Position numbers and translations under genes: made by a program. Shown in pieces: positions 29,084 to 42,257 of a stretch of 64,000 nt of DNA (position 1 is its first letter; every line of letters starts with the position of its first letter). Source of the stretch: Escherichia phage AV117. The stretch lies in sequence record OR352947.1; one strand, 5' to 3'. The notes under the pieces were generated by a model that saw nothing but the letters and a program-made list of their open reading frames with translations, did no database searches and was not told the origin of the DNA.

Positions 29084-29356
29084 ATTATTTCTCTTAAGGT
29101 TTGGGCCATTCCGTGGCACATGAATTGTCCATTTCTGTATTTACCCATTACCGCACTTGGGCTCGACCTTATTACAGGTTGGCGGGAATCCCTCATAGAA
29201 TCATGAGGTCCAGGTTGTTCCCATGTTATTTGAATGTAAATATTTTTGCCGTAATACTTATACTAGTGTGGCTTCATTAAAATTTTTTCATCGAGTCATT
29301 TCACCTCTCCAAGTAATTATGAATATACTATCACAATTTTAGGAGAAAGTAAACTG

Positions 29357-29659
29357 TTATTTACCTTTAATTACTTTAGCTGCTTCGATAGCCGCTTGCT
29401 GAAGGTCATCCATAGACATACCGAATTTAGAAGCAAAGTTATCAATTTTCCTTTCGACAGCATTCAAAGGCTTGGCCTGTTTACCTTCATTAGCGCCAGG
29501 AAGAGCGAGAATACGCTCTTTGTCAATATAAAGGCTTACAAGTTTCTTACGGTCTTTATCGGACAAATCATGAAATGAATGGGCCTTTTTATTTATAGCG
29601 GCTTCTAATTTACCTGCACTCACTCGCGCTTCAGTAATAAATTCTTGATATGTTTTCAT
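29357..29659 (-). CDS. Internal protein (IPIII-like) with capsid targeting sequence
   Basis: N-terminus MKTYQEFITE matches the T4 internal-protein CTS consensus MKTYQEFIAE. Confidence 0.65.
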   Translation of the reverse strand: MKTYQEFITEARVSAGKLEAAINKKAHSFHDLSDKDRKKLVSLYIDKERILALPGANEGKQAKPLNAVERKIDNFASKFGMSMDDLQQAAIEAAKVIKGK

Positions 29660-29685
29660 TTTTGTTCCTATTGGTTTAATTTATG

Positions 29686-30000
29686 TTATTCTTTAGGGAA
29701 GTTTTTAGAGTATGCATCATAAAGTTTATTACCGATGCGACGGAAGACTTTAGCTGCAAAACGGTTTTCAGGGTTTTTAATCATGATTTGCATCATGTAA
29801 GTTCCTGCATCCGAAAGAGCTTCTTCATAGTACCCATTAATTTCTTTAAGGGTTCTACGTTTACCACCAGGTCCATCAACAGTAATTTTCCATTTACCTG
29901 TAGAAGTGCGGCTCGGTGGTTCAACTTGTTCAATCCAAATATAACCGCCTTCAACGCGTTGGTTGGCGGATTCTGCAATAAATTCTTTATACGTTTTCAT
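29686..30000 (-). CDS. Internal protein (IPII-like) with capsid targeting sequence
   Basis: N-terminus MKTYKEFIAE; own early promoter at 30031-30060. Confidence 0.65.
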   Translation of the reverse strand: MKTYKEFIAESANQRVEGGYIWIEQVEPPSRTSTGKWKITVDGPGGKRRTLKEINGYYEEALSDAGTYMMQIMIKNPENRFAAKVFRRIGNKLYDAYSKNFPKE

Positions 30001-30030
30001 TTTTGTTTCCTTGTTTGTTTTGATAGAGTA

Positions 30031-30060
30031 ATTATACCATATTAATACTTAAGCGTAAAC
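30031..30060 (-). promoter_or_regulatory. Early promoter (GTTTAC-N18-TATAAT)
   Basis: Minus strand GTTTACgcttaagtattaatatggTATAAT, followed by SD AGGAA and ATG 30000. Confidence 0.5.
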
Positions 30061-30063
30061 AAT

Positions 30064-30324
30064 TTAAGCTTTACCGCCAGAAATAATTCCGAAGTTGTTA
30101 AAATCGTATCCAATATCGTCAACATCTACTTTAGGGCTTGCTACAACATAAGCAATTTCACTACGTTTTGCATAGGTGTTGATTTCTTTACCATCGTCAC
30201 CTAAGAAAGAATACCCATTACGTTTTAATGAGCCAAAGTCTTCCGCATCACCAATGAAAGCTTTAACTTTAAATTTAGGACCTTTGGCATCTGCGTCAAT
30301 GATAAATTCTTGATACATTTTCAT
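30064..30324 (-). CDS. Internal protein-like (CTS variant MKMYQEFIID)
   Basis: 86 aa with CTS-like N-terminus; SD AAGGA. Confidence 0.6.
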   Translation of the reverse strand: MKMYQEFIIDADAKGPKFKVKAFIGDAEDFGSLKRNGYSFLGDDGKEINTYAKRSEIAYVVASPKVDVDDIGYDFNNFGIISGGKA

Positions 30325-30330
30325 TTTTCC

Positions 30331-30744
30331 TTAGTAAATTGATTTACCATAGTATTTGTACCAAGTCGGACGTTGAGCAATTTTTTCATCTAAGCGTGCT
30401 TGACTTATCGCAATGGACGCTTCGGACGGGACATAATTATTACGAAATTCGGCAGGGATGTCGGAAATATCCTGGACTGTCGTGTCCTTGATTTTGAAAC
30501 CACGTTTCAAACATTCAGCGATTAGCTCGATTTGTCGTAAACGTAAAAATTCGAGTTTGTCGTAAAAGAATGTTACGTGACCTGTGCCTAAGATAAATGT
30601 TGGAGAGATTTTAAAATCCTTTACACGTTTACCGTTTTGAACATGTTTACGGACTGCACCAAATACGCGTGGTAATTCACGATACTCAGCCATAAGATGT
30701 TGGTCGGTCAGTTCAGAAACAAGTGTTAAATTGATACGAGTCAT
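30331..30744 (-). CDS. denV: Endonuclease V (pyrimidine dimer DNA glycosylase) DenV
   Basis: 138 aa from ATG 30744, [33 protein letters not shown]...; matches T4 DenV. Confidence 0.85.
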
Positions 30745-30802
30745 AATTTCCTCCAAGTAGTTGATGAATGTATAGTATCAAAACCCTTGGAGGAAGTAAA
30801 CA

Positions 30803-31084
30803 CTATTTTTCTGAAGCGCCCGAAATATATTTTTCAAGACGTTGTTTCATCAGCGAGCCGTTCTTAGCGATTTCTTCCGGTTTATCGCACATGCGCAACA
30901 AGGCTTCAAGCTTAACGATATCACTGGTACGTTCAAATTTGCGAGTATCTATCTTACTAGCAAGTTCAGAAATACGTGCTAATAGACTTTCAGCTTCAAC
31001 CAAAGCTGCACCTAGCTTAGTCGCAAATGTGTCAGTAGCTTCGTTAAGAATAGATTCTGATAAAAATTCACTATATGTTTTCAT
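30803..31084 (-). CDS. Internal protein-like (CTS variant [10 protein letters not shown])
   Basis: Start at ATG 31084, overlapping the gene e stop (ATGA); CTS-like N-terminus. Confidence 0.55.
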
Positions 31085-31569
31085 ATATACGCTTTCCAAG
31101 TTCCTGTTTTAAATGTTGAGATTACGCGTTTCGCTCGATTAGGTGTCTGACGATACCATTTAGATTGGGCTAGATTTACTGCCGCTTCATCCCAACGTTT
31201 CTGTTGAAGCATACGAAGAGAATTAGTAAAACCAGCGACGCCTGCTACACCCATTTGGAAGACCATATTGACCAATGCACATCGACGAACTGCATCTAAA
31301 GAATCATATACCGGTTTAAGTTTAGCATTACCCAAGATTCCGCGAACAGCTTTATCAACGTCTTCATTAAATAACTTTTCAGCCTCATCAAGGGTAATTG
31401 TACCGTTGCATTTACGTCCGATCATTCTGTCAAGTTCAGCTTTAGCTACGGTTAAAGACGGGTTCTTTGTTACTAAATGACCTATGCCAATCGTCCAAAA
31501 GCCTTCAGTGTCTTTGTATAAAGACAGTCTAAGACCTTCGTCATTACGAAGCATTTCAAATATATTCAT
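31081..31569 (-). CDS. e: Endolysin (T4 lysozyme)
   Basis: 162 aa from ATG 31569, [32 protein letters not shown]... with catalytic E11/D20; SD GGAGGTATT. Confidence 0.9.
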
Positions 31570-31571
31570 AA

Positions 31572-31595
31572 TACCTCCCACGTTTATAGGAGGTA
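31572..31595 (-). promoter_or_regulatory. Hairpin sequestering the gene e Shine-Dalgarno (translational control)
   Basis: Minus strand UACCUCC-uauaaacgug-GGAGGUA-uu-AUG; the 7-bp stem pairs the SD; an AT-rich AATAAATA box sits just upstream. Confidence 0.5.
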
Positions 31596-31603
31596 TTTAT
31601 TAC

Positions 31604-41893: not shown

Positions 41894-42181
41894 TTACAGA
41901 AGAGTTTTTGCAATAATTTTAAGCTGAGCTACAGAAATATGCTTAGCTTTAAACAGTGCAGTCTCTTCAGCCGGAGAGATAACAATAGTAGCGCCATCTT
42001 TCTTAGCAGACCATCCATCCCCTAAGTAAACAGTACCTTTTACTTCTTCGCCGTCAACCAGACTAATCATTGGTTTACCCTCACGTCCTTTATTTGCTTT
42101 AATAACTTCGGAAGTAAGGGTTGCTTCAGTCAGAGTAGAAACGTTAGCAACAGGTGATATAAATTCTTTATAGGTTTTCAT
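41894..42181 (-). CDS. Internal protein (IPI position) with capsid targeting sequence
   Basis: N-terminus MKTYKEFISP; sits next to 57B as ipI does in T4; mature region not recognisably T4 IPI. Confidence 0.6.
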   Translation of the reverse strand: MKTYKEFISPVANVSTLTEATLTSEVIKANKGREGKPMISLVDGEEVKGTVYLGDGWSAKKDGATIVISPAEETALFKAKHISVAQLKIIAKTLL

Positions 42182-42215
42182 TTTATTTCCTTGAGGTCGT
42201 TTATTTGATAGGATG

Positions 42216-42245
42216 ATAGTATCACGCCATCATCCTTATGTAAAC
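42216..42245 (-). promoter_or_regulatory. Early promoter (GTTTAC-N18-TACTAT) with inverted repeat AGGATGAT/ATCATCCT
   Basis: Minus strand GTTTACataaggatgatggcgtgaTACTATcatcctatc; SD AAGGAAATAAA precedes ATG 42181. Confidence 0.5.
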
Positions 42246-42257
42246 TGTTTTGTGAAA

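Follow-up and report, generated by a model that had tools for sequence, protein, structure and literature searches.

A stretch of 64,000 nucleotides from Escherichia phage AV117 (sequence record OR352947.1; hereafter the window) carries, around the endonuclease V gene denV, several small genes whose products begin with variants of the capsid-targeting sequence (CTS) of the T4 internal proteins (IPs). The question raised by this locus is whether these genes encode a set of packaged and injected proteins directed against host defences, or whether their common N-terminus has a different meaning.

Layout of the locus and its leader peptides

Between positions 29357 and 31084, where A ends with its stop and D has its start codon, respectively, the minus strand contains four ORFs with MK[T/M]YxEF leaders, designated A, B, C and D (Table 1). 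The preliminary description of four CTS-bearing genes around denV was thus accurate, while its placement of three of them upstream of denV holds in plus-strand coordinates and not by the direction of transcription, which runs in the order e, D, denV, C, B, A, with C, B and A downstream of denV. The window is about 98% identical in DNA to ST0 (NC_041990), AV110 and AlbertHofmann and shares their gene order, which identifies it as belonging to the RB69/JS09 group of Mosigvirus. By synteny with T4, RB69, ST0 and SP18, genes A–D are encoded in the hypervariable IP locus of the e/denV region.

In common with the T4 internal proteins are the MKTYxEF(I/L)xE leader, including Tyr4 and Phe7, as well as the neighbouring genes e, denV and vs.8, and the window likewise carries an IPI ortholog at the second locus. 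The claim that T4 has ipII and ipIII here, in a different number and order, was also confirmed: the order in T4 is e-ipIII-ipII-denV versus e-D-denV-C-B-A in the window, where ipIII is absent and four cassettes are found instead of two. Both T4 cassettes are located between e and denV, whereas those of the window lie on both sides of denV, with ipII on the vs.8 side. A further difference from T4 is the Asp of C at the cleavage residue.

Table 1. Positions of cassettes, flanking genes and putative regulatory or junction elements in the window.
Feature	Position	Strand	Characteristics
Orphan IP-type element, right after ipII stop	29305..29356	-	GTTTAC early-type promoter with overlapping inverted repeat
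ORF A, ipII ortholog, 100 aa	29357..29659	-	leader MKTYQEFITE; 92% identical to T4 IpII; phrog_7857 'internal virion protein', 1.5e-54
Leader DNA of A and ribosome-binding region, recombination junction	29629..29669	-	comparisons with RB69 and phi25-307
ORF B, Ip10, 104 aa	29686..30000	-	leader MKTYKEFIAE; 95% identical to phage Pol Ip10 (CAA84455); phrog_3966, 4.5e-34
T4 early-type promoter before B	30031..30059	-	GTTTAC, 17 nt, TG-TATAAT; aligns with T4 elements upstream of ipII and ipIII
ORF C, RB69 ORF125-type internal head protein, 86 aa	30064..30324	-	leader MKMYQEFIID; phrog_2667 'internal head protein', 6.8e-20
denV (endonuclease V)	30331..30744	-	Pfam Pyr_excise, 3.3e-14; phrog_1183, 1.5e-62; conserved gene among cassettes
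ORF D, Ip5-like internal head protein, 93 aa	30803..31084	-	phrog_3499 'internal head protein', 1.2e-46; 48% identical to T6 Ip5, E = 1e-24
e (lysozyme)	31081..31569	-	Pfam Phage_lysozyme, 8.9e-14; conserved upstream flank of the locus
Fifth CTS gene, ipI ortholog, beside 57B (second IP locus)	41894..42181	-	PDB 2JUB (IPI*), 5.6e-42
IP-type early promoter with overlapping hairpin upstream of ipI	42205..42252	-	GTTTAC, then 10-bp stem

The leaders are far more frequent than expected by chance, since the six-frame translation of the whole window contains five copies of the motif MK.Y.[ED]F, compared to a mean of 0.015 and a maximum of 1 in 200 shuffles. Residues M1, K2, Y4, E6 and F7 are present in A, B, C and D and in the fifth ORF (41894-42181), and codons 1, 2, 4, 6 and 7 are the same in all five leaders.

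Gene families of the cassettes

Each of the four ORFs is homologous to an IP family that has been named or annotated (IpII, Ip10, phrog_2667 and Ip5/phrog_3499), and for three of them (A, C and D) the matching PHROG family bears an internal head or virion protein annotation. An (L/I)xE site is present at the leader end of A (ITE10), B (IAE10) and D (LSE10, followed by LNE15), and is lacking in C. The predicted gp21 cut after Glu10 would leave a mature A of 90 aa with a pI of 9.7; the mature part of B comprises 94 aa with a pI of 9.6. The exact A protein is present in public collections, and the ipII cassette shares 93% identity with that of T4, versus 78–88% for the flanking denV, e and vs.8. 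Judging by homology, A should, like T4 Ip2, block a type IV restriction enzyme of the GmrSD/BrxU type.

B is 72% identical to SP18 Ip10; phage Pol Ip10 was named in 1994. Mature B was detected by tblastn in 189 phage records, and an exhaustive HMMER search of 1.84 billion representatives revealed one true relative, a CTS-bearing protein of 97 aa (P0021). Six long repeat proteins were also returned in the searches for mature B, five of which were rejected as noise summed over repeats. Pfam, applied to the five other than P0023, assigned FG-GAP, CBM6, Calx-beta/CBM60, SdrD-B and filamin domains, which are unrelated families, and we make no claim of beta-sandwich homology for B.

C starts 6 nt past the denV stop codon and is 94% identical to RB69 ORF125 and 93–94% identical to its relatives overall, the ORF being otherwise intact. 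Unlike the classical basic IPs, the part of C after residue 10 is acidic (pI 5.2). Its leader ends with IID10, so that the cleavage residue, encoded at 30295-30297, is Asp, and the protein has no [LIV]xE site elsewhere. Relatives of C have Glu10, and the E10D substitution was absent from all 156 related records and a collection of 15 billion proteins, the window alone having Asp10 among the sequences examined. Many frameshifted fragments of the C family are present in public data. In T4 IPIII, Asp10 allows packaging and blocks processing (PMC9026906); C is therefore probably carried with the leader attached, that is, packaged without processing in this genome. The expected cleavage after an LxE or IxE site probably fails for C, which has I-I-D instead of I-x-E.

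In D, the LNE15 site (residues 13–15) is conserved: among its relatives N14, E15 and A16 are invariant and residue 10 varies. As judged from the sequences, the bond between Glu15 and Ala16 is more likely to be the processing site than that after Glu10. The pI of D is near neutral, and the ATG with which the gene starts shares nucleotides with the e stop codon (ATGA). In Mosigvirus, D is near-invariant and translationally coupled to e.

Once the leaders were removed, no significant mutual similarity was found between the cargo of different families (best E = 0.14), and the cargo of B, C and D showed no sequence similarity to that of Ip1, Ip2 and Ip3 (best E = 0.14). The mature parts had been described as divergent, which applies between families and not to A, whose mature part is 92% identical to T4 IpII. 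Word-index homolog searches revealed only 3, 12 and 5 clusters for the B, C and D families, and these families thus look confined to T4-like phages of enterobacteria; homologs were also seen in Karamvirus and Gelderlandvirus. A PDB sequence search with B, C and D, each query lacking Met1 with no effect on the outcome, gave nothing below E = 0.1; for the cassettes, Pfam yielded sub-threshold noise only (DUF7412, CsgH) and NCBIfam nothing. AlphaFold2 models had a mean pLDDT of 46.8 for B (3-sequence alignment) and 41.8 for C (6-sequence alignment), too poor to be used for fold search, so that none of the mechanisms has support from a fold. A literature search for virion proteomics or N-terminal sequences of the B, C and D families found none.

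Cassette exchange and promoter elements

The number of cassettes at the locus varies from two in T4 to three in Shf125875 and SP18, four in the window and RB69, five in W143 and six in phi25-307. The relatives differ by whole cassettes, with the junctions of gains, losses and swaps located in the leader-coding DNA. At gene A, homology to RB69 starts at 29629, and window positions 29637-29669 match the ipII and ipIII leaders of phi25-307. RB69 and phi25-307 have an ORF123c-type cassette at the position between ipII and vs.8, where it is missing in the window. In RB69 (NC_004928), an ORF123c-type cassette replaces ipII, Ip10 is truncated and the leader of D is frameshifted. Degraded copies, such as RB69 ORF127 with its frameshifted leader and RB69 ORF124c with its changed C-terminus, indicate that some cassettes can decay.

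T4-type IP genes are typically flanked by an element of about 70 bp in which an inverted repeat overlaps a T4 early promoter. In the window, such promoter/inverted-repeat combinations, homologous to those of T4, follow A and precede ipI, while B is preceded by a promoter without a hairpin. The B promoter is the best sigma-70 match in the region (10/12, with an extended -10), and no hairpin was predicted at this site (30031..30059). The orphan element after ipII can be aligned with the one that precedes ipIII in T4; its hairpin of -5 kcal/mol was equalled in 13 of 200 shuffles. The hairpin of the ipI element is more stable (-6.3 kcal/mol, z = -2.8). No IP-type promoter/hairpin element was found before C or D, genes that directly adjoin denV and e, and no exact T4 late promoter TATAAATA occurs upstream of the cassettes, as opposed to two upstream of e in T4. 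The ipI ortholog has a predicted cut after LTE19, and by homology should block a GmrSD of the CT596 type.

A polymorphic locus with promoter/hairpin elements was reportedly described by Repoila, Tetart, Bouet and Krisch (EMBO J 1994). Over 30 variants of IPs are on record, together with promoter-based elements for their shuffling (PMC2839356), and both polymorphic IP loci are attributed to Repoila et al. (1994) as cited in PMC2839356 and PMC3012670. Compared with the loci of Ip4 to Ip13, as reported by Repoila et al. (1994) and Comeau et al. (2007), the window contains nothing different in kind: a conserved leader with unrelated cargo, early-promoter/inverted-repeat elements, and shuffling within and between two loci are shared. 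The difference is that Ip10 and the Ip5 relative occupy the denV/e locus in the window versus the ipI locus in that system; in Tequatrovirus, Ip5 is found at the other IP locus.

Packaging, injection and anti-defence function

Bair and Black (2007) and Srikant et al. (2022) are said to have characterised IPs as subtype-specific GmrSD inhibitors. T4 Ip1, Ip2 and Ip3 act as inhibitors, each of them against a different GmrSD type IV enzyme (Silas et al. 2025, PMC12373910), and IPs have been viewed as diverse defence proteins having the CTS alone in common (PMC3012670). IPIII is required on ECOR17 and acts in the cytoplasm, and leaderless IPIII works when expressed by the host (PMC9391042). Taking these data into account, we consider it likely that the window contains an ipII/ipIII-type polymorphic IP locus of an RB69/JS09-like Mosigvirus, in which four cassettes are interleaved with e and denV and encode products that are packaged, injected and active against host defences. 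By analogy with T4, the leader of about 10 residues would bind the prohead scaffolding core, and the gp21 prohead protease would cut after (L/I)xE; this site ends at Glu10 in A and B, whereas Glu15 is the probable one in D. After maturation, the proteins would enter the host with the DNA, where each cargo may neutralise one fast-acting host defence. For B, C and D, the packaging, injection and anti-defence activity are inferred. The proposal that a conserved leader precedes a diversifying set of injected anti-defence proteins is supported by the unrelated cargo (E values of at least 0.14) and by cassette swaps at the leader DNA, and the published view agrees. The variable locus, the gene families and the anti-defence idea are, however, already known, so the finding is correct and ordinary.

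The common N-terminus could alternatively be a translation-initiation or recombination sequence only, the proteins remaining cytoplasmic and unpackaged. The leader DNA does serve as a recombination junction, and the upstream AGGAAAnAAA ATG is similar among the genes. However, three codons each are used at Thr3 (ACA, ACG and ACC) and Ile8 (ATT, ATC and ATA) in the five leaders, and this synonymous variation, along with the invariant Tyr4, Glu6 and Phe7, points to constraint on the leader peptide itself, and a purely nucleotide-level likeness was rejected on this evidence. The preliminary description had named an effect of translation initiation as what would overturn it, and the codon test came out against such an effect. 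Moreover, both A and the IPI ortholog have orthologs among the proteins purified from T4 heads, and the ten residues of the T4 CTS, with Tyr4 and Phe7 critical, suffice to send foreign proteins into heads (PMC9026906). This origin of the common N-terminus appears highly improbable.

If the proteins are packaged, they could still be mainly structural, neutralising the charge of DNA or assisting the assembly of the core and scaffold rather than inhibiting defences. Mature A and B are small and basic, the Black review reports aberrant head assembly in IPIII-minus and triple-IP mutants, an interaction of basic IPs with DNA is an older idea (PMC9026906), and internal-protein lysines contact DNA phosphates (PMC3012670). 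Nevertheless, the acidic C and the near-neutral D do not conform to such a role, unrelated cargo that is swapped, gained and lost among near-identical phages fits a generic function poorly, all three T4 IPs have specific GmrSD targets, and IPIII is active in the host without its leader; we therefore regard a mainly structural function as unlikely. It is quite doubtful, too, that one or more of the cassettes are decaying passengers, a fate to be considered mainly for C, impaired by E10D. The absence of E10D from relatives, the block of T4 IPIII processing by Asp10, the degraded leaders and C-termini in RB69 and the frameshifted fragments of the C family favour decay, while the intact remainder of the C ORF and its similarity to relatives speak against it; a packaged unprocessed protein may still be injected and active, and E10D could be a sequencing error.

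Within the preferred reading of an injected anti-defence set, the mature parts had been put forward as candidates for uncharacterised inhibitors. This does not apply to A, which is IpII and belongs to a characterised family, and B is Ip10, one of the ip4-10 genes screened with no reproducible match. In these assays, performed with T-even phages, ip4-10, including Ip10, gave no reproducible inhibition of the tested GmrSD variants (PMC12373910 supplement). Both A and the IPI ortholog are closely homologous to proven inhibitors. The cytosine of the window's phage is arabinosylated rather than glucosylated, and the relevant nucleases may therefore differ. Mosigvirus DNA is arabinosylated, and BrxU of the GmrSD family cuts such DNA (PMC13390438). 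B, C and D would most likely block other modification-dependent nucleases acting against arabinosylated cytosine DNA, or other early defences. Only tentatively, and with more doubt than confidence, can we propose that one or more of the proteins B, C and D inhibit, specifically and upon injection, a defence that has so far had no connection with IPs. Separately, E10D would make C a natural IP that is packaged but unprocessed. A candidate target of such an inhibitor would be a type IV or END-type nuclease recognising the arabinosyl-hydroxycytosine DNA of Mosigvirus; specificity for arabinosyl DNA would explain the negative ip4-10 screens with glucosyl-hmC T-even phages. D is the best candidate for such an inhibitor.

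Arriving with the DNA before phage gene expression, IPs provide counter-defence in the first minute, and for a phage used in therapy or as a model, the cassette content is of help in predicting the type IV restriction variants that can be overcome. The locus adds no new principle, and its value lies in annotation: A is IpII, B is Ip10, D is Ip5-like and ORF 41894-42181 is IpI. For sequenced Mosigvirus, the RefSeq annotation of A, C and D is already that of internal virion or head proteins, while B is still a 'hypothetical protein' in RefSeq ST0.

Organisation of the locus and its leader sequences

All four genes of the preliminary description (ORFs A to D), which carry variants of the capsid-targeting sequence (CTS; an N-terminal leader of about 10 residues), exist with exactly the limits assigned there, and all are on the minus strand. 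As transcribed, the gene order is e, D, denV, C, B, A, vs.8; the placement of three genes upstream of denV holds only in plus-strand coordinates, since C, B and A are transcribed after it. Only 6 nt separate the end of denV from the start codon of C, while e and D overlap, the ATG of D sharing nucleotides with the e stop codon. As previously described, gene number and order differ from those of T4 (e-ipIII-ipII-denV).

Features of the internal-protein (IP) loci in the window
Feature	Coordinates	Strand	Remarks
ORF A	29357-29659	minus	100 aa, leader MKTYQEFITE
ORF B	29686-30000	minus	104 aa, leader MKTYKEFIAE
ORF C	30064-30324	minus	86 aa, leader MKMYQEFIID
denV	30331-30744		Pfam and PHROGs
ORF D	30803-31084	minus	93 aa
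e (lysozyme gene)	31081-31569		Pfam and PHROGs
ipI ortholog	41894-42181	minus	fifth CTS gene; adjoins 57B, second IP locus, outside the locus described here
IP-type element directly downstream of A	29305-29356		overlapping inverted repeat; homologous to the T4 pre-ipIII element
IP-type element upstream of B	30031-30059		10/12 matches, extended -10, no hairpin
IP-type element upstream of ipI	42205-42252	minus	overlapping hairpin, 10-bp stem, z = -2.8

Six-frame translation of the window gives five copies of the leader motif MK.Y.[ED]F, whereas 200 shuffled versions average 0.015; the fifth copy belongs to the ortholog of T4 IPI, which matches the solved IPI* structure (PDB 2JUB) at 5.6e-42. Codons 1, 2, 4, 6 and 7 are the same in all five leader genes, while Thr3 and Ile8 are each encoded by three different codons; this synonymous variation shows that the likeness of the leaders is constrained at the peptide level. 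Residues 1-10 of IPIII suffice for targeting proteins into the prohead core, a function in which residues 4 and 7 are important, while cleavage by the prohead protease gp21 involves residues 8 and 10 (PMC9026906). By analogy with T4, the leaders of A-D would direct their proteins to the prohead core.

Protein families and processing sites

On the basis of similarity, A is identified as IpII (92% identity to T4 IpII across all 100 residues; phrog_7857 at 1.5e-54) and B as Ip10: the phage Pol Ip10 (CAA84455) falls in the same 90% cluster as B and has 95% identity to it, and the protein annotated as Ip10 in Shigella phage SP18 has 72%. D has 48% identity (E = 1e-24) to Ip5 of T6, a protein encoded in Tequatrovirus phages (e.g., KarlGJung) at the other IP locus, adjoining 57B. 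C falls into the family of RB69 ORF125, phrog_2667 ("internal head protein"). The 90%-identity cluster containing RB69 ORF125 and C-family proteins also holds many 137-aa denV proteins, probably a clustering artefact of ORF calls fused across the 6-nt denV/C gap.

The picture of a conserved leader followed by divergent cargo was borne out: in an all-against-all comparison, the leaderless parts of different families had no significant mutual similarity (best E = 0.14). The mature parts of B, C and D were found by tblastn in 189, 217 and 496 phage records, respectively, nearly all of these records being T4-like phages that infect enterobacteria, and the exact A, B and D proteins are present in public collections on 4, 218 and 541 contigs. 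For B, C and D, nothing came from searches of PDB, Pfam and NCBIfam. When mature B was used in an exhaustive HMMER search, one genuine relative emerged, also CTS-bearing; the remaining matches were six long repeat proteins, of which the five scanned belong to unrelated repeat families, and were rejected as noise. The AlphaFold2 models of B (pLDDT 47) and C (pLDDT 42) were too poor to permit fold comparison.

A and B have canonical I-x-E10 sites, and gp21 would cut both after Glu10; the IPI ortholog retains an LTE19|A site. In the D family, residue 10 varies (the leader reads FLTV there in P0019, a protein of this family, and is scrambled in RB69) while L13-N14-E15-A16, aligned with ITE15 of Ip5, is conserved, so that mature D probably starts at Ala16. 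In ORF127, the RB69 ortholog of D (L004, RB69 NC_004928, 5145-5215), two frameshifts separated by 21 nt, one a -1 deletion and the other a +1 insertion, change the leader to MKTYMNFYQN; either the CTS has decayed or the old sequence is in error.

In C, codon 10 (30295-30297), corresponding to the gp21 cleavage residue, is GAC (Asp) in place of GAA (Glu), and the protein has no other [LIV]xE site. Since Asp10 in T4 IPIII blocks processing while still allowing packaging (PMC9026906), the prediction is that C keeps its leader in the head, or else the base call is an error. The 74 nt around this codon had no exact match in 156 related GenBank records, all five relatives inspected have Glu and a different base, and the exact C protein was not found in a 15-billion-sequence collection.

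Cassette variation and flanking elements

The Mosigvirus phages ST0 (NC_041990), AV110, AlbertHofmann and SA79RD match the region at about 98% identity over 2.4 kb. All four genes recur in ST0 in unchanged order; RefSeq labels three of them as internal virion or internal head proteins and the B ortholog as hypothetical. The locus is a cassette array in which cassette number and identity vary between close relatives: two in T4; three in SP18, and three, without Ip10, in Shf125875 and the LF82 phages; four in the window, ST0 and AV110; four also in RB69, where an ORF123c-type cassette replaces ipII; five in W143 (additional ipIII); and six in phi25-307 (additional ipIII and ORF123c-type). RB69 ORF124c (L004, 3848-4120) is an Ip10 with an altered, shorter C-terminus (90 versus 104 aa) and looks like a frameshifted copy.

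Cassette junctions are located in leader DNA. The window and RB69 become homologous at 29629, at about codon 10 of A, and therefore one end of the ipII/ORF123c replacement lies inside the leader; in phi25-307, ipIII is flanked by two copies of a 33-nt stretch (29637-29669 in the window) that matches both ipII and ipIII leaders. The ipII cassette (29324-29669) shares 93% identity with T4, more than denV, e and vs.8 around it (78-88%), which points to a recent lateral transfer of the cassette between Tequatrovirus and Mosigvirus.

Each of the three IP-type elements in the window is a GTTTAC early-type promoter; C and D each lack their own promoter. The element past A looks like an empty slot. 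The ipII-vs.8 gap (29084-29356) comprises 273 nt of non-coding DNA with an orphan IP-type promoter/hairpin, and a short upstream ORF (MDNSCATEWPKP) precedes vs.8 within it. The segment 29074-29145 has 83% identity to the region preceding the extra ORF123c-type cassette of phi25-307. Loss of a cassette in the gap, or failure ever to gain one, is suggested. No exact T4 late promoter was found upstream of the cassettes; the sole exact motif near the locus (TATAAATA) is inside the A coding sequence (29590-29597, minus strand). Upstream of e (31570-31603), where T4 has two exact copies, only near-matches such as AATAAATA are present.

Published background and candidate targets

According to passages in PMC2839356, PMC3012670 and PMC12373910, the two hypervariable IP loci, the conserved leader, the flanks that combine a promoter with an inverted repeat, and the hypothesis of shuffling go back to Repoila et al. 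1994; PMC2839356 cites Comeau et al. 2007 for a catalogue of over 30 IP variants. The anti-defence interpretation is explicit in Rao and Black 2010 (PMC3012670), and this role has been demonstrated for Ip1, Ip2 and Ip3 (PMC9391042, PMC12373910). All essentials (locus, leader, shuffling and anti-defence reading) are thus published, and the exact four-gene arrangement is present in several deposited genomes.

Each injected cargo would be expected to neutralise one early-acting defence; IPIII lacking its leader is still active in the cytoplasm of the host (PMC9391042). Homology suggests an Ip2-like action for A and an Ip1-like one for the IPI ortholog. A literature search found no virion proteomics for the B, C and D families, and ip4-10, Ip10 among them, gave no reproducible inhibition in a screen against GmrSD variants (PMC12373910). 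Because BrxU, a GmrSD-family enzyme, cuts Mosigvirus DNA, which contains arabinosylated hydroxycytosine (PMC13390438), nucleases dependent on this modification are obvious candidate targets of B, C and D.
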